This document shows positions 9,882 to 43,168 of a stretch of 64,000 bases of DNA, one piece after another (within the stretch, counting starts at the first letter, position 1; each line of letters opens with the position of its first letter). The stretch is from Candidatus Levyibacteriota bacterium (GTDB lineage Bacteria > Patescibacteriota > Microgenomatia > Levybacterales > GWA1-39-11), in NCBI GenBank assembly GCA_050255815.1, contig JBLMVJ010000035.1:10727-74726 (forward strand), given 5' to 3'. The position numbers and the translations under genes are program-made. The notes under the pieces are model-generated. The model had not been told where the DNA came from. It searched no databases and worked only from the letters and a program-made list of their open reading frames with translations.

Positions 9882-10040
9882 ATGACACAGCCCTCTACAC
9901 CCGAGACCAACACCCTCGCCCATGCGCTTGCGCAAGCTTTGGCTAACCGCCAAGGTAAAAATCCACGCAAGCTGCGGACAGCAAAGGACTTTGAGTTTCT
10001 GGGCCGCGAGGTACTGAAGGTCATAGGACAACAGGCATAG
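9882..10040 (+). CDS. hypothetical 52-aa protein (first ORF of the high-GC island; below the ORF-track cutoff)
   Basis: ATG at 9882 preceded by GGAG at 9869-9872. GC-rich codons. Stop TAG lies 8 nt before the next ATG. Confidence 0.3.
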   Translation: MTQPSTPETNTLAHALAQALANRQGKNPRKLRTAKDFEFLGREVLKVIGQQA

Positions 10041-10048
10041 GAGAACTC

Positions 10049-10333
10049 ATGAACCTACTTCTGGGATACGGATCACTTGCATTCACCTCTTGGTGGATCG
10101 CAGGTACTATCGTCTTTCTTCTGATGCGCAAGCACCGGAAGACCGTCCTCTGGAGAGTGGTTTACGGACCGCTCGTGTTTATCCTCGCGGACTTTATACC
10201 TGCCCTGGCGCAAGCTATGGGTATGCGTATTTGGTACGCTGAAGGAAACGTCAACATCGCCTTCTGCCGGCATGACCCGTCAGAATTCAAGGCGATCTGC
10301 AGAGACTGCGGACAAGAGGTTCACAAATCCTAG
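10049..10333 (+). CDS. hypothetical small membrane protein (high-GC island)
   Basis: Two predicted TM helices and a C-terminal Cys-containing tail (CRHD...CRDCG). GGAG at 10040-10043 lies 5 nt before the ATG. Confidence 0.4.
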   Translation: MNLLLGYGSLAFTSWWIAGTIVFLLMRKHRKTVLWRVVYGPLVFILADFIPALAQAMGMRIWYAEGNVNIAFCRHDPSEFKAICRDCGQEVHKS

Positions 10334-10553
10334 GAGGACAGCGATTGAAGACTAGACCGCCGCCGAAGGCACTTTCCTTGGGAAGCCCCAAAAAGGCAAG
10401 CCCAAAAAGCAAGGTAGTATCCCGCAAACGCGTAAGCGTGTTCGGAACTTGCTTTCTAATGCAGAAATGCACGGGAAGAAATTCCTGGATCCTTACCGGC
10501 CCTAGTTCATCCGAATTCTGGCTTTGCAAGCCAACAGCTCATGGAGAGATGCC

Positions 10554-11990
10554 ATGAATTGGACTGCGCTACTAGCGTGGGTGATGGACCCAGTCCGCAC
10601 CCTTGACGAACTTCGGCAGGCGCACCTTGCCCTGATCGGCCATCCCAACATGGGGAACCGCGTTCAGGTGCGTGCGCGCGTGAGGAACTACATCAATCTG
10701 ATGATCGCCACCCAAGGTGGAGGAGCTCCTGCTCCTTGGCACCCTGGCATGGGCGCTCCTGTGGTTCCTCCAACGCCAACACCTGGCCCTGCGCCCGTTC
10801 CTGGTCCTGGCCCTGCGCCCGTTCCTGGTCCTGGCCCTGCGCCCATCGTCCCGCTCGTTCCGGTTGTCGGCTATCGCCCACGCATGTGGACGTACCGCCG
10901 AATGATACGGAGAGCGCTAAACGAGGGCAACACCGCCTGGATGGATACCGAACTCACGGCATGGGGAGACCCTCCGGGAGTCGGCACTCCAGCACAGCGT
11001 GCGTACCGGCTCGAGAACTTCTCGAGGTCACGGCACGGGTGGAACCGCATCGGGCATGATATCCCGGAGCTTGTTCCGCCTGGCGCACCGGCACCGGCAC
11101 CCCGCCGACAGGTGGACTACGGTCCCCTTGGGTGGATCGCAGGTGCTCTGCTGATCGCAGCCGGCGCAGCCGTACTGTTCTTCGCCTTGATTCTGCCTCT
11201 CTCCAAGTGGGGATGGGACCAGAGCTTCGGCGACGACACGGCAGTGCAGCAGCCCGGCAACCAGCCTGGTAACCAGCCCGGCGGCAACAACGGCAACGGT
11301 AGCGGCAACGCGAACCAGCCTGGCAACAACGGCAACGGTAGCGGCAACGCGAACCAGCCCGGCAACCAGCCCGGCAATAGCGGCGTCATCAAGAACTTGG
11401 CCGACGGCCAGTTCCCCTGGACACCGCCCACACCGGGTACCGACCTTGGGAACGACAAGCAGTTCACCAGCACCATCATCGAGCAGGCCAAGCAGGGAGA
11501 CTGGATTCACAGGCTCTTCAACCCTGGCTTGTTCAACGCAGCCAATAACTACGGCGGAGCCGATTCTTGGGCTATTAGCCTGAACGTCGGTCCGAACGCT
11601 GGTGGCAGCTGGAAGGGCGAGGGAGTCTCGGGACGCTTCGTCTACCGTGCTGTGCAGAATCAGGTGGGTTGGTGCCTTGGCATCCTCACCTCGAAGACGT
11701 GGAACAACATCGACCTGAAGAGTCAACTCCTCAGCGGTTCAGACCCCAGTTTGCCGATCGGATTCAACGTCCGCATCGAACCAGGGTCTACCGTGATGGT
11801 GAAGACGAACTCAGGCGAGATCAAGTCCGGCGTCACAAGCGACATGGGTGATATCCAAGTCGTTCTGCCAGACAGCGGGCTGACCACCATCTGCACTGCG
11901 TTCAGCACTGCAGCACCTACGGGTGAAAGCCAGCTTTGGGTGGGACCTCGGGACCGCTCCAAGGACATCAACACGATCGACGCGCGGTAA
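10554..11990 (+). CDS. repeat-rich single-pass membrane protein of unknown family (high-GC island)
   Basis: The listed ORF starts at TTG 10524; ATG 10554 is preferred because GGAGAG sits at 10543-10548. Contains a PGPAPVPG repeat, one TM helix (LGWIAGALLIAAGAAVLFFALILPL), a QPGN/NGNGSGNA repeat, and a ~270-aa C-terminal domain. Confidence 0.6.
   Translation: MNWTALLAWVMDPVRTLDELRQAHLALIGHPNMGNRVQVRARVRNYINLMIATQGGGAPAPWHPGMGAPVVPPTPTPGPAPVPGPGPAPVPGPGPAPIVPLVPVVGYRPRMWTYRRMIRRALNEGNTAWMDTELTAWGDPPGVGTPAQRAYRLENFSRSRHGWNRIGHDIPELVPPGAPAPAPRRQVDYGPLGWIAGALLIAAGAAVLFFALILPLSKWGWDQSFGDDTAVQQPGNQPGNQPGGNNGNGSGNANQPGNNGNGSGNANQPGNQPGNSGVIKNLADGQFPWTPPTPGTDLGNDKQFTSTIIEQAKQGDWIHRLFNPGLFNAANNYGGADSWAISLNVGPNAGGSWKGEGVSGRFVYRAVQNQVGWCLGILTSKTWNNIDLKSQLLSGSDPSLPIGFNVRIEPGSTVMVKTNSGEIKSGVTSDMGDIQVVLPDSGLTTICTAFSTAAPTGESQLWVGPRDRSKDINTIDAR
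10776..10847 (+). repeat. about 3 tandem copies of a 24-nt unit (cctggtcctggccctgcgcccgtt) encoding PGPAPVPG
   Basis: Units read directly at 10776-10799 (partial match), 10800-10823 and 10824-10847. Confidence 0.85.
11283..11360 (+). repeat. two tandem copies of a 39-nt unit encoding GNNGNGSGNANQP
   Basis: 11283-11321 and 11322-11360 differ at only 1 of 39 positions. Confidence 0.9.
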
Positions 11991-12410
11991 CGCACGGCGA
12001 TCCCAGACTCCTCGGAGTTGCCGATGGAGAGTACCTTAACGTCACGAGCACCGCCTAACCGCTGTGATGATCGTGGTCCGCCTGGAAAAGGAGGTTGACG
12101 ATAACCCTCTGGGTTGTCAGGATCCTGAGCGCAAGCTTGAGGATCTCCTCCACTACGGCGGACAGACTGGACAGTTTATGTGTTTCACGCTCCTTTGAGT
12201 TTTGCATTCAAAGAAAGTCGTGTCACGGCAAAAACTGGTTCCAGTCAGGGTGAGAGACTCATTTATTGAGAATTGATTGGATTTTTTCCATCAAGTCTCT
12301 TTTGAGACTTTCTCCCACCTACATGCCTTTGCGTCTCCCTCACCATTATGGTGAGGGACTGATGAGTATTCTTTCGGAGAAATCTGAGGGAAACGAAACG
12401 CAAAAAAAAC

Positions 12411-21445: not shown

Positions 21446-21510
21446 AATTTAGAGTCTAGAATTCAGATTTCAGAATTAAATTTTGAATTCTAAATTTTGA
21501 ATTCTAAATT
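21446..21510. repeat. AT-rich GAATTC/TAGAAT spacer repeat (S1-radA spacer)
   Basis: Shares aatttagagtYtagaatt and attctaaattc with 42790-42841. Also shares a 22-nt exact match (21458-21479) with the reverse complement of 34518-34539, inside a 23S intron. Confidence 0.6.
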
Positions 21511-22596
21511 CTACCGGTATCCTACGAAGGTCTTCGTAACAATAGGAGATAATACAACTACTCTCTTTTTGGTATCAACTTCTACCACTTCTGCACTTAC
21601 AGACTGTCCTGGTTCATAGGTGGTACCTGCAGGAATCTTGCTGGAAGAAATAAATCCATTTACACCGTCTCCCAGTTTAACAGTCACACCCTTTGACCTT
21701 ACATCTGAAACGGTCCCGGTTACTTTCTCTTCCGGCTTAAACTTCTCTGCTGCTTTAGCAAATGAGTCGTTGAGCAGAGATTTTACTGAAAGGTTTACCC
21801 TCCTGTTCTCTGCGTCTACGCTTAACACTACCGCCTCAAATGCATCACCTTTTTTATATAAATCATTTAAGTTCTCTACCCTCTCATGGGAAATCTCAGA
21901 AATATGGATAAAACCTTCGGTAAGTTTTCCTTCTGTTGCCTGCGTAGTCACATACACACCATATGATGCAACCTGGGAAACAGTTACCGGCACTTTTTTA
22001 TCTTTGGGGAAAAGTTTGCGCAAAATCTCTGCATCAGTTACATATGAAACAGCTTTCTGGGAAAAAATAGCCCTCTTTTTTGTTTTGTCAGACTCAATAA
22101 TTTTTACTTCTATAGTTTTGCCGCTTAGGTTCTCTCCGTCAAGCACCTGTGAGTTAGGAAGAAAACCGCGGATGCCATTTTCTGCTTCAACAAAAAATCC
22201 GCCGCGGGTAGGTTCTAAAACTTTCACGCTTACGGTCAGGTTATCTGCCAGTGCCTTGTCTAAATTAGAGAAAATGAGGTTGCCCAGCGTACGGCGCAGA
22301 GAAACAACAGGAAAACCCTCTTCTGCTTCAGGAGAAATAACAACAGCTTTTACTTTTTCTCCTACTTTCAGCATGGAAAGCAGGTGGTTGAGGTTATTTT
22401 TATCAACTTCCAGAACTAATGCATCTGATTTTGCACCAATATCTAAAAGGATTTCTTGGGGAGTGAGTTTTTTAACGGTTCCTTCTACTTCCTCACCTTT
22501 TTTAAACACCTTAAAACTTGAGGATGACCTGGCCATGAGCTCAGCCATGGAAGAAGCATGTCCTGGATTAGATGCGTTTTTGCTTGAAGTTGGCAC
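21511..22596 (-). CDS. rpsA: 30S ribosomal protein S1 (four S1 domains)
   Basis: Repeated S1-fold motifs (GEEVEGTV, GFLPNSQ, EGFIHISE, VTGTVSDV). The listed start is GTG 22596; ATG 22548 (MAELM) may be the true start. Confidence 0.75.
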   Translation of the reverse strand: MPTSSKNASNPGHASSMAELMARSSSSFKVFKKGEEVEGTVKKLTPQEILLDIGAKSDALVLEVDKNNLNHLLSMLKVGEKVKAVVISPEAEEGFPVVSLRRTLGNLIFSNLDKALADNLTVSVKVLEPTRGGFFVEAENGIRGFLPNSQVLDGENLSGKTIEVKIIESDKTKKRAIFSQKAVSYVTDAEILRKLFPKDKKVPVTVSQVASYGVYVTTQATEGKLTEGFIHISEISHERVENLNDLYKKGDAFEAVVLSVDAENRRVNLSVKSLLNDSFAKAAEKFKPEEKVTGTVSDVRSKGVTVKLGDGVNGFISSSKIPAGTTYEPGQSVSAEVVEVDTKKRVVVLSPIVTKTFVGYR

Positions 22597-28895: not shown

Positions 28896-29681
28896 ATGCA
28901 TTACCTAAAGATCTTAAAAGCGCTGATAGTCATTAACACCGCATACGCGTTAGAGTACAAGGCGCATTTTGTGGCCCAGGTTTTTGCAAGCCTGGCCTGG
29001 GGCGTATTTTCCGTGGTCAACATGATCCTTTTGACGTACCGCGTCCACTCTGCTTTTGGCTGGAGCAGGAATGAGCTCATCCTTCTTTCCGTTATGGTTA
29101 ATGTAGTCTATGGCATCCACCGTATGTTGTTTGATGTAAACTTCTGGAGATTCTCCCGGATTATCCATTATGGAGAAATGGACATGGTGCTGTTAAAGCC
29201 CGTGGACTCCCAGTTCCAAATGAGCATGTGGATCATAGATATTAGCGGTATCTTCAGATTTTTAGTTGCCCTAGCGCTCACCTTTATCCTGGTTTTTGCC
29301 ATGCACTTTCCTATTTCTCTGACAAGTGTGTTGATTGCCACTATTTTAAGCCTGGCCGGTGTGGTCCTTCTCTATGCTTTCACCTATATCTTCCTAACCC
29401 TCACCATCTGGTTCTCTAACCTCTCTAACCTGATGGGACTGGTGAATAATATCCTTTCTATGTCCCGGTATCCAAAAGAAATGTATGAAGGATTAGGCAC
29501 CTACTTTTTCTTTTTTCTCTTGCCTTTAATTGTTATAATAAGCACTCCTACAAAAGCTCTCATCCAAAAGGGGAACCTGTTAGATAGTCTGCTTTTAGTA
29601 CTCTTTACTATCCTATTTTTTGCAATCTCAAGGGTGTTCTGGAAATTCGCCCTGCGGTTCTATGTCAGTGCTTCAGGATAA
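28896..29681 (+). CDS. ABC-2 type transporter permease (type 2 of a pair)
   Basis: Six TM segments. Resembles the 30671-31453 product (C-termini YVSASG versus YTSASS). Confidence 0.7.
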   Translation: MHYLKILKALIVINTAYALEYKAHFVAQVFASLAWGVFSVVNMILLTYRVHSAFGWSRNELILLSVMVNVVYGIHRMLFDVNFWRFSRIIHYGEMDMVLLKPVDSQFQMSMWIIDISGIFRFLVALALTFILVFAMHFPISLTSVLIATILSLAGVVLLYAFTYIFLTLTIWFSNLSNLMGLVNNILSMSRYPKEMYEGLGTYFFFFLLPLIVIISTPTKALIQKGNLLDSLLLVLFTILFFAISRVFWKFALRFYVSASG

Positions 29682-33598: not shown

Positions 33599-33719
33599 GT
33601 CCTGGCCTTGACCTATCTTCCCATGTTGTGTAACAACAAAGTATTGTGAGCGCTGACGTGTTTCACTTCTCTGTTCGGAATGGGAAGAGGTGGGACCACA
33701 TCGCTCTAAAGACCAAGAC
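33599..33719 (-). rRNA. rrf: 5S rRNA
   Basis: The reverse complement reads TCTTGGTC...GGTCCCACCTCTTCCCATTCCGAACAGAGAAGTGAAAC...GGCCAGGA, with helix I pairing between the termini. Confidence 0.85.
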
Positions 33720-34000
33720 TCAAGAGCAAAACCGGTAAGATCCGAATCTACTCGAATAGTTTGGGGTAACTTCTAGGCTACCCCATTCTTCTCGAATATT
33801 TCGAATTAACATTAACAAACACTAGCGCATTCGAATTGATTCGATTTAAATTCGAACCATTCGAGAATGATTTCTTAGAATCCACGCTATTTGGATCGAC
33901 CTATTAGTACAACTTCGCTGAAACAGTTACCTGTCTTACACGTGTTGCCTATCAACCTGATGGTCTCTCAGGGGTCTAAAAGAGATCTTATCTTAGGGTG

Positions 34001-34033
<33 letters not shown>

Positions 34034-34268
34034 CATGGAAATCTAGCTACCCAGCAGTGCACTTGTAAGTACAACTGGCACACCAGGGATTTCCTCACCC
34101 CAGTCCTCTCGTACTAGGGGCGACTCCCTTCAAATCTCAAACGGTTGTCCTGGATAGAGTCCGAACTGTCTTACGACGTTCTTAACCCAGCTCGCGTACC
34201 TTTTTAACTGGCGAACAGCCAGACGCTTGGGAGCTTCTCCACCCCCGCGCTAAGATGAGCCGACATCG

Positions 34269-34698
34269 CTGTCAATCCAATCAGTAATTAAGAAAGACTT
34301 AAAAACTTAAAACTGATGGTGATACTCTTGTTACCAAGAGCCTCTGACTATACCTTCATCCGCCAACTGGCGGAGCTAGTCGTATGATACAGATTATAAA
34401 TTTCTCTTTATGAGATGAATCCATATCTCACCCTCTCACCTATGCTGGTGAGGGGTTCAGTCGATAGGGTCCAAAAGAAATTTAAAATTCAGAAGTTAAA
34501 ATTCAGAATTAAATTCTTAATTCTGAAATCTGAATTCTTAACTCTATTTGAACCTCGGTATTACCCTCTTGTGTTCAGAAAGTAGGGTTTCACCGATTTG
34601 GACTAGTTATTTAAATTATTAGTACCTTGTTTTTTGACTCAAATACTAATAAATACAGGCAAGAGTATTACTACTCAGGCGCCCCGATATTTTCATAT
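34269..34698 (-). mobile_element. group I-type intron (430 nt, no ORF) after the E. coli U2500 equivalent
   Basis: Exon junction is GGCACCU | CGAUGUCGGCUC. The 5' exon ends in U and the intron ends in G. GATGAAGGTATAGTC (reverse complement of 34346-34360) resembles the group I J8/7-P7 core. Confidence 0.7.
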
Positions 34699-34742
34699 AA
34701 GGTGCCAAACCGCATCGTCGCTGTGGACGCTTGGATGCGATC

Positions 34743-34775
<33 letters not shown>

Positions 34776-35230
34776 AAGCTACGTCCCAACCACTAAGGAA
34801 CGCAGGATCACTAACACCTGCTTTCGCACCTGCTCGACTTGTAGGTCTCGCAGTCAAGCTGGCTTGTGCGTTTGCACAATACGCTCCGATTTCCGTCCGG
34901 AGTTAGCCAACCTTTGTACGCCTCCGTTGCACTTTAGGAGGCAACCTCCCCAGTTAAACTGCCCACCAGACACTGTCTTTTAGCCGTATTTTTATGCGGC
35001 ATTAAAGTAATGCTCACTCATCTTAAAGAGAGGTATTTCATTGATGACCGAAGTCTCCCTCCTATACTAAACAGTTAAAATAAGCTTGCAAATGTCAAGC
35101 TACAGTAAAGCTCCCGGGGTCTTTTTGTCCTAGGACAACCAGGCCGCGTCTTCACAGCCATCTCAATTTCGCCGTGTAAATGTTCAAGACAGTTACTCAG
35201 TCGTTCTACCTTTCGTGCGGGTCGGAACTC

Positions 35231-35548
35231 CATTGTTTTAATGTTCCAACATGGAACCTCACAGTCGCCTGTGAGATCGGACTATATCTTTCCCTTACCA
35301 AATTGGTGAGGGATCTAGCGTCTAGTCTCTGAGGGTTTTCCGATAAATCGGAATCTTCCCTGCTGATTGGCTCCACCAAGCAGATTTTTACTCTTACGAG
35401 TACTGTTGGATACTGAGCTGTTCCAGCAAATAGCTAGATTTTACACTCATTTAGGTTAACGATTGTGTTCTTACGTGACTGTTTTGCTTGTTCCTGATGT
35501 GTATCCCGATTAGATCGGGACTCGGGCAAGTTGATTTGACCCAAACCA
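35231..35548 (-). mobile_element. group I-type intron (~318 nt, no ORF) after the E. coli U1951 equivalent
   Basis: Exon junction is UCCUUGUCGGGU | (G)AGUUCCGACC. The 5' exon ends in U and the intron ends in G. AAGATATAGTCC (reverse complement of 35279-35290) and GAGACTAGACG core-like motifs are present. Confidence 0.65.
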
Positions 35549-36885
35549 ACCCGACAAGGAACTTCGCTACCATAGAACAGTTATAGTTACTGCTGCCGTT
35601 CACCGGAGCTTTAGAAAGCGGCTCCACCTTGCGGTTTCACCACCCACTATTGACTTACCGGCACTGGGCAGGTGTCAGCCCCTATACGTTACCTTTCGGT
35701 TTTGCAGGGACCTGTGTTTTAGATAAACAGTCGCTAAGTAATCTTTTGCTTAACCTGGATGTTACTCCAGGCAGGGCATCTCCCATAGGTTACGCCCAGC
35801 TTTTGTTGCCGAGTTCCTTGAACATTTGTCTCACGGTCGCCTTAGTCTACTCGACCAATCCACCTGTGTCGGTTATGCGGTACGGCAAAATATAGCACTC
35901 CTCACGAATCTTTTCCTGAAGACTGAAACTTACGATCCTCACCCTACTTTCTTGCGATTTCAGATTTGCATTCGCCACTTAATTAAACACTTTGACGGAT
36001 TTGCCCATCAAAACTATCTTATGGCTTGGACCCTGTTTACAGGGCGATCCTTTCCACTCTTGTCCATCCTTGAGTAATAACGCACTATACTCTGTAGCAG
36101 AATATTAACTGCTTGTCCATCCGGCTACCCCGCGCTTTATGACGGGCCACCGTTAGGAGCCGACTAACGCTGCGCTGACTTACATTGCGCAGCAAACCTT
36201 GGATTTTCGGCGGACGCCGTTCTCAGGCGTCATTCGCTACTCATGCCGGCATTCTCACTTGTAAACGCTCCACCATACCTTACAGTACAGCTTCGCTGCA
36301 TTTACGACGCTCCCCTACCACTTGCTCCGATAAATCGGAGTCAAATCTCCATCGTCGGTATTAAGCTTAATCCTCGATCATTTCCGGCGCCATTCTCCAA
36401 TGTCGACTAGTGAGCTGTTACGCTTTCTTTAAAGGATGGCTGCTTCTGAGCCAACCTCCTAGCTGTCTATGGAAAATGACTTCCTTATCAACTTAGCTTA
36501 AATTTAGAGACCTTAGATGGGAGTCTGGGCTGTTTCCCTTTAGACCCACGAGCTTAGCCCCGCAAGTCTGACTCTCTATTAAGTTTTTACGGTATTCGGA
36601 GTTTGATTGATCCTGAAAAGTTGCCTCTCCAGAGACCATTCAGTGCTCTACCCCCGTAAAAACATACAAAAGGCTATACCAAAATATATTTCGGGGAGAA
36701 CCAGCTATCTCCAGGTTCGTTTAGTATGTCACCCCTTACCACAAGTCGTCTCAGATCATTGCTGCGATCACGAGTTCGGGCCTTCCTCATCCTTTCGAAC
36801 AAGTTCACCCTGCTCATGGTAAGCTCACCTGGTTTCGGGTCTTTTGCAATGCGCATTTAGGTATCCCAGTTAGAGATCGCTTTCA

Positions 36886-36992
36886 CTATGCCTCCCCCCT
36901 CACCTTTCCAACGAAAATTCCAACCTTTGTTTTAAATCGAGCTTGTTTCGATAATATTTCAAAGTGGTAATCCTCATTAGAATGGTGAGGGG
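36886..36992 (-). other. 107-nt stem-closed expansion/insertion in the 23S domain II helix-25 region
   Basis: Closed by cccctcacc (36886-36894) pairing with ggtgagggg (36984-36992). Absent from the E. coli and B. subtilis sequence as I recall it. Confidence 0.5.
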
Positions 36993-37360
36993 TTAGACTG
37001 CGCAATACAAAAACTCACCGGCTCATTCTTCAATAGGCACGACGTTATACCCTTGCGGGCACTTCGTCTGCTTGTTAGCTAATAGTTTCAGTAACTCTTT
37101 CATTCCCCTCCCGGGGTGCTTTTCACCTTTCCCTCGCGGTACTAGTTCACTATCGGTAGATGTTGATATTTAGCTTTGGAGCGTGGTCGCCCCGGCTTCC
37201 CACAGGGTTTAATCGTACCCCATGGTACTCAGGAACAGGCAAGAAGTGAAAATCATTTCAAATACGGGACTATCACCCTCTTTGGTCTCTTTTTCCAAAA
37301 CGTTCTTCTATGATTTCCATTTGTGACTTCTTTTGCATTTAAGCAAGCCGTCCTACAACC

Positions 37361-37660
37361 CCCCTCACCTTTTTATCACTAACCTTTTTAAAAGTTCTTG
37401 CCAAGCTTTTGCGCGCTTCTTAAGCGCCTGCTCTCTTCTAAAAGCTAATTTATAAGAAGTATATGCTTCATAATAAATAAGCTCCCATGGCAAAAACTTT
37501 TTAGTATATATAGACTTTCCTTTATTATGGTCCGTAAATCGAGTTTTAAGATCTTTTGTTGAACCAATATAAAACTGGTCGAACTTTACACTCTTAAGAA
37601 TATACGTGTAGAACATAAGTCTATTATAGTTATTTAAGTTAGGAACAAAAAGGTGAGGGG
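37361..37660 (-). mobile_element. 300-nt stem-closed intervening sequence in 23S domain I carrying a GIY-YIG ORF
   Basis: Perfect 10-bp closing stem: cccctcacct (37361-37370) with aggtgagggg (37651-37660). It replaces the short hairpin that follows ...CAGCYCAAACC in other bacteria. Confidence 0.6.
37365..37616 (-). CDS. small GIY-YIG (URI-domain, COG2827/YhbQ-like) nuclease encoded inside the 23S insertion
   Basis: MFYTYILKS...FYIGSTKDLKTRFTDHN...E...ALKREQALKK pattern. Same orientation as the rRNA. The stop codon lies within the closing stem. Confidence 0.8.
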   Translation of the reverse strand: MFYTYILKSVKFDQFYIGSTKDLKTRFTDHNKGKSIYTKKFLPWELIYYEAYTSYKLAFRREQALKKRAKAWQELLKRLVIKR

Positions 37661-38003
37661 TTTGAGCTGTTCCGCGTTCGCTCGCCGCTACTGACGGAAT
37701 CTCTGTGATTTCTTTTCCTCGGACTACTTAGATGTTTCAGTTGGTCCGGTATCCCGCCGACTACTAATATATTAATCTTGCGACTAATAACTTCATAGCA
37801 GGCTCCCAGTTAAACTGGGGGGTTTCCCCATTCGGACACCACCGGATCATAATGTCTTCGGCCATTCCCCGGTGATTTTCGCGAGCCAGATGCGTCCTTC
37901 TTCGGTCAACACCTCCTAGGCATCCACTATTAGCATGAATCAAATAGCGTAGATTCTAAAAAACCAATTCATTAAAAACCATGCCTCGGCTTGAAACATG
38001 GAA

Positions 38004-38028: not shown

Positions 38029-38222
38029 AATCCTCCGTCCCGATTAGATCGGGACTTCGGCCTAGTTGTTTGTTTGTAATTCTTCCAATTATTAATGAGC
38101 AAAACGCTTTTTGCGTTGCCCTCGGATGTAATCCGAGGCCATATCTCTCCTGTACTCGTTTCTCGCCGGGAAGTATATTGCCCTTCCACCAGCGAGGAAC
38201 CAATACAAGAAAACTAAAAAAG

Positions 38223-38295
38223 TGGACCCAAGGAGATTTGAACTCCTGACCTCGTCATTGCAAATGACGCGCTCTACCAGCTAAGCTATGGGCCC
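38223..38295 (-). tRNA. tRNA-Ala (anticodon UGC)
   Basis: The reverse complement GGGCCCATAGCTTAGCTGGTAGAGCGCGTCATTTGCAATGACGAGGTCAGGAGTTCAAATCTCCTTGGGTCCA folds as a cloverleaf with G3:U70. CCA is not encoded. Confidence 0.95.
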
Positions 38296-41853: not shown

Positions 41854-42789
41854 TTATGCTTTTTGCATGGTGAGCCAGCGCTCTATATCTAGTGCTGCCA
41901 TGCAGCCAAATCCTGCGGCAGTTACTGCCTGGCGGTACCTATCATCCTGGACATCCCCGGAAACAAAAACACCTTCTATATTAGTCCTCACCCGTTCTTT
42001 TGCGCTTACATACCCGCTTTGCGTCAAATCTACCCCTTTAAAGATAGATGAATTTGGCGTATGGCCAATAGCCACAAATATACCGTCTATAGGCATTTCT
42101 GTTACTTCCTGGGAGACGGTATTCTGGATTTTAACCTTCTCTACTTTGTTCCCCCCCAGTACTTCAACAATTTGAGAGTTAAGCATAACTTTAATTTTTG
42201 GGTTATTTTTTACTTTATCCTGCATAATCTGGGATGCCCTAAAGCTGTCCCTTCTATGGAGCAAGGTAACTTCTGCAAAATTGGTGAGGAAGTTTGCTTC
42301 CTCCATAGCAGAATCCCCTCCGCCTACAACTATGATCTTTTTTCCCCTAAAAAATGCCCCGTCACAGGTTGCACAGTATGAAATACCGCGCCCGGTCAGC
42401 TCTTTTTCACCCGGTACGCCCAGTGTTTTTGAATTCTCACCGGTAGCCAGGAGAAGGGCTTTGCCTTTATAGGTCTTCCCGTCCGCTGTTATAGAAAACG
42501 GAGAGGATGCCCCTGTCAAATCTGTAGGATCAGCATCCGCATTCACGAACGTTACTCCAAAACGCTCTGCCTGGCTTCTCATTTCCATCATAAGCTGGGG
42601 TCCCTGTATTCCTTTGGGAAAGCCCGGGAAGTTTTCAACCTCCGTAGTAAGCATGAGCTGGCCACCCCAAGTCTTCCCTGCAATGATAAGAGTTTTAAGT
42701 CCGGCTCTGGAGGTATAAATTCCTGCAGTGAGGCCGGAAGGACCGGATCCTATGATGATTACATCAAAAATGGGTAATTCAGAATTCAT
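41854..42789 (-). CDS. trxB: thioredoxin-disulfide reductase
   Basis: FAD motif IIIGSGPSG, redox-active CATCDG, and NADPH motif VVGGGDSAMEEA. Confidence 0.88.
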   Translation of the reverse strand: MNSELPIFDVIIIGSGPSGLTAGIYTSRAGLKTLIIAGKTWGGQLMLTTEVENFPGFPKGIQGPQLMMEMRSQAERFGVTFVNADADPTDLTGASSPFSITADGKTYKGKALLLATGENSKTLGVPGEKELTGRGISYCATCDGAFFRGKKIIVVGGGDSAMEEANFLTNFAEVTLLHRRDSFRASQIMQDKVKNNPKIKVMLNSQIVEVLGGNKVEKVKIQNTVSQEVTEMPIDGIFVAIGHTPNSSIFKGVDLTQSGYVSAKERVRTNIEGVFVSGDVQDDRYRQAVTAAGFGCMAALDIERWLTMQKA

Positions 42790-42841
42790 AATTCAGAGTT
42801 AATAATTAAATTTAGAGTTTAGAATTTTATATTCTAAATTC
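42790..42841. repeat. AT-rich GAATTC/TAGAAT spacer repeat (trxA-trxB spacer)
   Basis: Shares aatttagagtYtagaatt and attctaaattc with 21446-21510. Confidence 0.55.
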
Positions 42842-43168
42842 TTACGAGGAGAGGGCTTCGTCCAGTGCTTTCTTAAATACGTCTTTTGGCTGGACTCCCA
42901 CGGTAGTTGCTACCGGCTTTCCCTTCTGGAAAATAATAACCGTGGGGATAGACATGATCCCAAAACTGGAAGGGGTTTTTACGTTCTCATCTACGTTCAT
43001 CTTCCCTACCTTTACCTTCCCCTCATACTCTTTCTCCAATTCTTCAATAATAGGAGTGAGCATATGGCAGGGAGTGCACCACTCTGCCCAAAAATCCACC
43101 ACAAAAGGAACGTCTGACTTTAAAACGTCTTGCTCAAATGTATCATCAGAAAGTTTTACAACTGACAT
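42842..43168 (-). CDS. trxA: thioredoxin
   Basis: 108 aa with active site WCTPC, a variant of WCGPC. Confidence 0.9.
   Translation of the reverse strand: MSVVKLSDDTFEQDVLKSDVPFVVDFWAEWCTPCHMLTPIIEELEKEYEGKVKVGKMNVDENVKTPSSFGIMSIPTVIIFQKGKPVATTVGVQPKDVFKKALDEALSS

Follow-up and report, generated by a model that had tools for sequence, protein, structure and literature searches.

A highly probable group IA intron without an open reading frame in the peptidyl-transferase loop of a Candidatus Levyibacteriota 23S rRNA gene

The 23S rRNA gene of a Candidatus Levyibacteriota bacterium, a member of the Candidate Phyla Radiation (CPR, or Patescibacteria), is interrupted between the equivalents of Escherichia coli U2500 and C2501, in the central loop of domain V. 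What is the interrupting sequence, and how could an rRNA that carries it serve in a ribosome? The gene lies on a 64,000-nt stretch of DNA (assembly GCA_050255815.1, contig JBLMVJ010000035.1, positions 10,727 to 74,726), all of which was analysed and is referred to here as the window. A previous sequence-only reading of this stretch had proposed a group I-type intron that lacks an open reading frame (ORF). The evidence described below indicates that the insert is almost certainly a group I intron and, with high probability, an ORF-less one of the IA type. Because 431 nt at this place are incompatible with a working peptidyl-transferase centre, we can soundly infer that the insert must be excised, and its removal by splicing in vivo is very likely.

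The minus strand of the window at 33883-37949 is 23S rRNA (Rfam LSU_rRNA_bacteria, 2126.5 bits). With a length of 4067 nt against the 2925 positions of the model, the gene contains approximately 1.1 kb of extra sequence. Direct counting along E. coli K-12 rrlH shows that the T of GGCACCT is nucleotide 2500, and in the BLAST alignment E. coli 2500 corresponds to window 34700 and E. coli 2501 to window 34268. Furthermore, a 300-nt query consisting of both exons without the insert aligns to E. coli 23S as one colinear piece. The insert therefore occupies 34269-34699 of the minus strand (431 nt). The sequence-only reading had placed the split at exactly this residue and had the lower end right, but its upper coordinate (34698, giving 430 nt) was one base short. 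In RNA sense the junctions read ...GGUUUGGCACCU / UAUAUGAAAAUAUCGGGGCGCC ... AUUGACAG / CGAUGUCGGCUC, or in a longer form ...GCGGUUUGGCACCU / UAUAUGAAAAUAUCGGGGCGCC ... GAUUGGAUUGACAG / CGAUGUCGGCUCAUC. The last base of the 5′ exon is U and that of the insert is G, as had been read from the letters, and the description as ORF-less also holds, as no ORF above 56 aa is found inside the insert.

In RNA sense, the insert can be resolved into the helices of a group I intron. Each helix was read from the window sequence and checked pair by pair, and P2, P2.1, P4, P5, P6, P7.1, P7.2, P8 and P9 also appear when the whole intron is folded by minimum free energy without constraints. The features are given below in approximate order along the RNA; the 26 sequences mentioned are the window intron and 25 same-site homologues, which are described further on.

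34269-34699, minus strand: whole intron, between 23S U2500 (34700) and C2501 (34268), matched by a profile built with the window left out (E = 1e-52)
34678-34707, minus strand: P1, in which exon GGCACCU (34700-34706) pairs with the guide GGGGCGCC (intron 15-22)
34262-34268, minus strand: start of the 3′ exon and P10, in which CGAUGU pairs with AUAUCG (intron 10-15, window 34685-34690)
34663-34676, minus strand: P2 hairpin, GAGUA-GUAA-UACUC, with a GNRA loop; at the same place in all 26 sequences, with differing stems
34616-34652, minus strand: P2.1 hairpin, from the pair check and the minimum-free-energy fold
34601-34606, minus strand: P3 5′ strand CUAGUC, pairing with 34376-34381 (99% of cells paired)
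34555-34596, minus strand: P4 (UCGGU/ACCGA), A-rich J4/5 and J5/4, and P5, with a loop of the conserved GAACA type
34468-34554, minus strand: P6 (GGUUC/GGACC) and its long AT-rich hairpin extension, from family pair counts and the window pair check
34473-34549, no strand assigned: AT-rich palindromic repeat of about 77 nt in the P6 loop, an imperfect hairpin of AATTCAGA-like units and their complements
34458-34464, minus strand: P7 5′ strand, U-[C bulge]-GACUG, pairing with 34345-34350 as read from the sequence
34431-34454, minus strand: P7.1 hairpin, CCCUCACC-AGCAUA-GGUGAGAGGG
34386-34427, minus strand: P7.2, GAUAUGGAUU/AAUCUGUAUC, with an inner hairpin
34376-34381, minus strand: P3 3′ strand GACUAG, from the pair check and family covariation
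34359-34374, minus strand: P8 hairpin, UCCGCC-AGUU-GGCGGA, 92-93% paired with many compensatory changes
34345-34358, minus strand: J8/7 (UGAAGGUA) and P7 3′ strand UAGUCA, aligned to the RF00028 consensus gAAGAUAUAGUCu and invariant in the family
34325-34340, minus strand: P9 hairpin, CUCUUG-GUAA-CAAGAG, 98.7% paired, five of its six pairs with two-sided changes
34277-34319, minus strand: P9.1-like 3′ terminal hairpin, intron-specific, a single-sequence prediction only
34269, minus strand: terminal G (omega-G), G431, before the 3′ splice site, read from the sequence

The guide ties the insert to its own exons. P1 places a U2500•G16 wobble at the splice site and contains one A×C mismatch, and intron nucleotides 2-13 form a short P1 extension capped by GAAA. 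The guide GGGGCGCC is unchanged in 26 of 26 sequences. In sister classes of intron with a GGGGUG guide, exon A2497 faces a U, so that an A-U pair stands in place of the A×C mismatch, which supports the register of P1. The complementarity of P10 is likewise kept in the homologues, which have ACAUCG or ACAUUG at the same place. As the P10 stretch directly precedes the P1 part on its 5′ side, a single unbroken guide aligns the two exons in the classical manner. A pairing of GCCU, after P2, with AGGC, after P7, was also considered and was dropped since it is not conserved across the homologues.

The catalytic core can also be traced. P7 (U-[C]-GACUG/UAGUCA) makes a pseudoknot with P3, and within it G238 (34462) and C354 would form the guanosine-binding pair. 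The elements U236-A355, bulged C237, G238-C354, J8/7 UGAAGGUA, J3/4 CAAA and J4/5 GAAA fit the group I pattern in sequence but are all invariant across the family, and covariation is therefore silent on them; the same applies to P4, which like P7 does not vary. The other core helices do vary. P3 shows a U-A to C-G exchange in nine sequences, and P5 is 97% paired with covariation. In P6, the basal pairs G-C, G-C and U-A, whose register is fixed by invariant anchors, are paired in 100% of cells across the family, while the two further pairs of this 5-bp stem, U-G and C-G, were checked in the window sequence only. The stretch GATGAAGGTATAGTC, in which the sequence-only reading had seen a resemblance to a group I J8/7-P7 core, lies at 34346-34360 of the plus strand, where the RF00028 alignment places its J8/7-P7 consensus. 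Taken together, the structural hallmarks of a group I intron are present, with the guanosine-binding site as a fit at the level of sequence, which supports the identity proposed from the letters.

The predicted pair of hairpins P7.1 and P7.2, situated between P7 and the 3′ strand of P3, is the defining module of class IA (PMC3984707; PMC1995217), and on this structural model the intron is assigned to subgroup IA. The hairpin pair is predicted in 25 of the 26 sequences (the window and 24 of 25 homologues) with unrelated stem sequences. In the remaining homologue (L051) the free-energy fold deviates at P7.1/P7.2, yet complementary GATAGAAGTT/AACTTTTAT arms are present. P7.2 is only 35-45% paired on the family alignment made with MAFFT, which is a misalignment of a variable hairpin and not counter-evidence. 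An alternative P7.2, UGAGAU/AUCUCA, was rejected, as GAUAUGGAUU/AAUCUGUAUC is the homologous helix in the family. Two hairpins in this place are also found in the orf142-I2 intron of phage Twort and the L2593 intron of Synechococcus C9 (PMC1995217), and in Twort they wrap the guanosine-binding pocket. A short P5 and GNRA loops on P2 and P9 are further features common to these introns and the U2500 intron. The likeness is structural; they occupy another site and another host gene.

To collect homologues of the insert, each prokaryotic species was represented by one genome, and these genomes were searched for a G immediately preceding the conserved 3′ exon (GCGATGTCGGCTCNTC...), which indicates that something ending in G has been inserted after U2500. 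At least 120 species representatives carry such an insert. Among the matches listed, the hosts include many Patescibacteria as well as Omnitrophota, Planctomycetota, Chloroflexota, Acidobacteriota, soil Actinomycetota (Thermoleophilia, Gaiellales), a Coxiella endosymbiont of a tick and one contig labelled Undinarchaeota. Within this same set, 106 loci have the 5′ exon on the same stretch, with inserts mostly of 226-915 nt and one of 3248 nt; nearly all of these have GGGG a few bases in, and their guides fall into the classes GGGGCGCC, GGGGUGC and GGGGUGR. Long blocks of sequence are conserved between the window intron and 25 inserts of the GGGGCGCC class plus one from a metagenome contig (L122), all 288-567 nt long. 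A profile search with nhmmer, using the 25 homologues and leaving the window out, matches 34709-34259 over the full model (E = 1e-52), and this is the sole match in the 64 kb. Several metagenome-assembled genomes among the loci, labelled "uncultured Gammaproteobacteria" (L038, L076, L055 and others), have 23S exons 94-95% identical to those of Levyibacteriota or Patescibacteria genomes (L038 against L091, L076 against L033), and on this sequence comparison the labels look wrong. The 600-nt exon windows are broken by other introns in some loci, which makes exon identities unfit for judging horizontal transfer.

None of the 26 GGGGCGCC-class members of the genome scan, which excluded the metagenome contig, contains an ORF of at least 100 aa. 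All inserts of approximately 800 nt fall outside this class; their ORF encodes about 200 aa and includes the motifs LLGDG and MDDG. Three such ORFs (L007, L024, L050) were compared with Pfam, and all three match LAGLIDADG_2 (E = 4e-35 to 4e-44). LAGLIDADG_2 genes at U2500 are thus confined to the sister classes, and the presence of these predicted homing endonucleases in longer introns of the same site points to U2500 as a homing site.

The proposed structure was then compared with the variation among the 25 homologues. The MAFFT alignment used sequence only, whereas the structure was taken from the window sequence, which is itself in the alignment and therefore favours the structure over the controls, mainly in the share of paired cells. 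With this reservation, 84.1% of cells are paired, compared with 35-41% when partners are slid by 1-3 columns, and 31 pairs show changes in both partners. For covariation, the score is 0.341, and the controls give 0.055-0.081; none of 500 shuffles reaches the observed values. When registers were set by invariant anchors, with no tuning per sequence, the paired fractions were 0.99 for P3, 0.97 for P5, 1.00 for P6, 0.92 for P8 and 0.88 for P9. Exchanges of the U-A to C-G kind and similar ones occur at the variable helix positions. In addition, all 26 sequences are predicted to form P2 with a loop of the GNRA type.

The observations that weigh against an active group I intron concern Rfam scoring and one junction base. 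A scan of the whole window with RF00028 at its gathering threshold gives nothing at 34269-34699, and calls only 35258-35526 (80.5 bits). A permissive scan of 651 nt, a comparison with Rfam of the kind that the sequence-only reading had suggested, does align model positions 1-253 end to end on 34324-34652 (24.4 bits, E = 4.7e-4), but this is below the gathering score of 50. The P4-P5 and J8/7-P7-P9 blocks align well (GAUGAAGGUAUAGUCA against the consensus UgAAGAUAUAGUCu), and a large unaligned insertion falls at the place of P7.1/P7.2. The match is suggestive and falls short of settling the identity of the insert. Also, J6/7 begins at intron position 233 (34467) with a C in the window where 25 of 25 homologues have G, and C233 may, judged from this conservation, weaken catalysis.

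These points would fit a group I intron that has decayed and no longer splices, leaving a 23S copy that is non-functional or needs rescue in trans. The lack of an ORF, the low RF00028 score, the G to C change at a family-invariant base and the repeat inserted in the P6 loop could all be read in this way. However, the core helices, the guide, P10 and the terminal G are intact, and the family profile matches over its full length. Inserts in the P6 loop are tolerated in four homologues (L105, L091, L090, L122). The 23S exons are well conserved (2126 bits), and there is no other 23S copy within the 64-kb window. The low score, moreover, is common to the subfamily: RF00028 at its gathering score also leaves four of four other family loci uncalled. 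It is therefore weak coverage of the U2500 subfamily by the model, and not decay of the window copy, that explains the score; the gathering threshold is in any case an operational and not a biological criterion. For the same reason, the lack of a significant match to a group I covariance model, which the sequence-only reading had named as grounds for giving up its proposal, would have misled for this insert. Decay of the intron is consequently very unlikely.

A different explanation is an intervening sequence that RNase III cuts out without ligation, leaving a fragmented 23S rRNA, as in the classical cases at helix 25 and helix 45. This gene does contain two stem-closed inserts of such a kind, at 36897-36991 and 37362-37659. 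The U2500 insert, on the other hand, has no stem joining its two ends, which are set instead by P1, P10 and the terminal G, and it has a covarying group I core and a guide for two exons. It sits in the peptidyl-transferase loop where the rRNA is single-stranded, and not at a helix tip, and removal of this kind is highly improbable here. That an error of assembly or binning has placed foreign sequence in the rRNA gene is scarcely credible: the contig is metagenome-assembled and rRNA genes are often mis-assembled, but homologous sequence with the same architecture is found at the same position in more than 100 independent assemblies, closed chromosomes included, the guide can pair with the exons on either side of the insert, and both the P6-loop repeat and the CCCTCACC stem of P7.1 occur elsewhere on the same contig.

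For the group I intron, excision would follow the established pathway, with a protein helper if one is needed. In the pre-23S rRNA, the guide 5′-AUAUCG/GGGCGCC would pair with GGCACCU to form P1, in which U2500•G16 would mark the splice site. An external guanosine held at the P7 pair G238-C354 would attack after U2500. G431 would subsequently take over the binding site, and the 3′ exon CGAUGU would pair with AUAUCG to form P10. The free 3′-OH of U2500 would then attack after G431 and be ligated to C2501. The ligated junction would read ...GGCACCU + CGAUGUCGG, by which the peptidyl-transferase loop would be restored. Throughout, the periphery would be expected to stabilise the core, namely the GNRA loops of P2 and P9, P2.1, P7.1/P7.2 and P9.1.

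Group I introns in CPR 23S genes were reportedly first noted by Brown et al. in 2015. Bacterial 23S introns are also known at L1931 in Thermotoga and Simkania and at L1917 and L1951 in Coxiella. These differ from the U2500 intron in site, and many of them carry LAGLIDADG genes. It is the second intron of the window, at 1951/1952, and not the U2500 intron, that matches this set, which is cited in two earlier papers (PMC3984707; PMC13011429).

In a survey of CPR rRNA genes, 82% of 23S genes had inserts and 222 ORF-less group I introns were reported, with group I introns concentrated at recurrent hot spots in the 3′ part of the gene (Tsurumaki et al., 2024; PMC11270868). Many other introns in that survey carry LAGLIDADG genes, and GIY-YIG genes occur in non-intron inserts. 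The window gene resembles these in clade, in gene, in its 3′-biased cluster and in its ORF-less class, as well as in its mixture of inserts, which includes a non-intron GIY-YIG insert. The text of the survey gives no coordinates for hot spots 23IS9-11, one of which U2500 may be. In Patescibacteria, introns of tRNA genes are mostly IA (25 of 28 at position 35/36, none IC), and a second covariance model was needed since some group I introns escape RF00028 on its own (Nakagawa et al., 2026; PMC13011429). In addition, rrl_2500 is a group I site in the chloroplasts of streptophyte green algae (Lemieux, Otis and Turmel, 2016; PMC4877394); these hosts are organellar, and the likeness here is that of the large-subunit site alone. 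Since CPR rRNA introns are abundant, ORF-less ones included, and the 2500 site has already been described, the U2500 intron is an ordinary member of an already common CPR intron family, with nothing biologically unexpected about it.

Its value lies chiefly in annotation. Here, a well-formed IA-type intron in the peptidyl-transferase loop of a CPR bacterium is not called by the standard Rfam model, and the whole U2500 subfamily with the GGGGCGCC guide evades RF00028 likewise. Surveys that apply RF00028 at its gathering score will thus undercount rRNA introns and file such inserts as "uncharacterised". The CPR survey (PMC11270868) states no cut-off, and if it used a similar one it may count inserts of this subfamily in that way.

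Several peripheral parts of the U2500 intron recur elsewhere. P6 with its AT-rich hairpin has a fold energy of -29.7 kcal/mol (z = -6.2). As had been observed in the sequence-only reading, its palindrome is shared with spacers: in addition to the copy at 34473-34549, there is one at 21446-21513, intergenic between two minus-strand genes, and one at 42776-42844, in a divergent region upstream of trxB, overlapping the 5′ end of the listed trxB ORF (41854-42789, minus strand). The P6 loop is short in most homologues, and several of these have unrelated low-complexity inserts in L6, P8, L5 or the 3′ tail (L105, L091, L090, L089, L001, L033, L122), places that, on these alignments, evidently tolerate extra sequence. 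We propose that the palindrome is a secondary insertion of a genome repeat at such a site. A metagenome scan with a 23-nt core word for a close relative lacking the P6-loop repeat gave none, yielding two contigs of a distant relative with 23S approximately 85-88% identical.

The 8-mer CCCTCACC, which closes P7.1, is found 10 times in the window, where 1.9 copies would be expected, and none of 100 shuffles reaches 10. The corresponding hairpin had been recognized from the letters, and its position is 34431-34454 and not 34432-34455. In the other 123 loci (849 kb), CCCTCACC stays at background (1.66 per 64 kb), which indicates that its enrichment is specific to this genome. Stems of CCCTCACC...GGTGAGGG form an intergenic hairpin at 12337-12357, P7.1 of the U2500 intron (34433-34454) and P8 of the second intron (35292-35312), and they also close both non-intron 23S inserts, so that all four 23S inserts contain one. 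The stem form common to these places is CCCUCACC/GGUGAGGG. Single copies of CCCTCACC lie at 29398 and 53744. The P8 hairpin TCCGCCAGTTGGCGGA (34359-34374) is identical to P7.1 of the intron of a related genome (L033:3801), to a tRNA-23S spacer (L101:1432) and to a site at L029:6291. These identical sequences in other contexts of related genomes suggest that small hairpin modules may be reused or move.

The recurring CCCUCACC/GGUGAGGG stem, the P6 palindrome common to two spacers and the identical P8 hairpins could be taken further, to mean that the peripheral hairpins of the U2500 intron are copies of genome-specific modules that colonise every removable 23S insert, and not inherited parts. 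We regard this as unlikely. If it were true, with the hairpins acting as a shared tag recognised by a processing or chaperone protein or as a family of miniature mobile elements that remodel ribozyme peripheries, it would add a new layer to the biology of CPR introns and rRNA inserts.

The second intron of the gene (35230-35547, minus strand) is a group I intron that also lacks an ORF. Its 318 nt lie between the counterparts of E. coli positions 1951 and 1953, with U as the last base of the 5′ exon and G as the last base of the intron, and RF00028 scores it at 80.5 bits (35258-35526). The U2500-family profile has no match to it, and the two introns are unrelated at the level of this profile. 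One of the non-intron inserts, at 37362-37659 (minus strand, 298 nt) in the 5′ domain of the 23S gene, is closed by a CCCCUCACC/GGUGAGGGG stem and gives neither a group I nor another Rfam signal; the product of the ORF within it (37365-37616) is a GIY-YIG protein of 83 aa (Pfam PF01541, E = 1.7e-15). The other, at 36897-36991 (minus strand), consists of 95 nt with stems at approximately model position 655 and is closed by the CCCUCACC/GGUGAGGG stem.

Beyond the 23S gene, the rRNA locus on the minus strand includes tRNA-Ala(UGC) upstream (38222-38295) and 5S rRNA downstream (33600-33717). Neither a 16S gene nor tRNA-Ile is found anywhere in the 64-kb window, and the 16S gene thus seems to be unlinked from the 23S-5S genes in this Levyibacteriota host. 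The thioredoxin reductase encoded at 41854-42789 is 100% identical to a Candidatus Levyibacteriota protein, and the named matches ranking next are Patescibacterial too, which makes the host a CPR bacterium; an exact-sequence search with the neighbouring IMP-dehydrogenase ORF gave no match. The window is gene-dense, with approximately 43% G+C. Its 2-kb bin at 10001-12000, which overlaps an ORF at 10524-11990, reaches 59.7% G+C compared with 40-46% elsewhere in the window.

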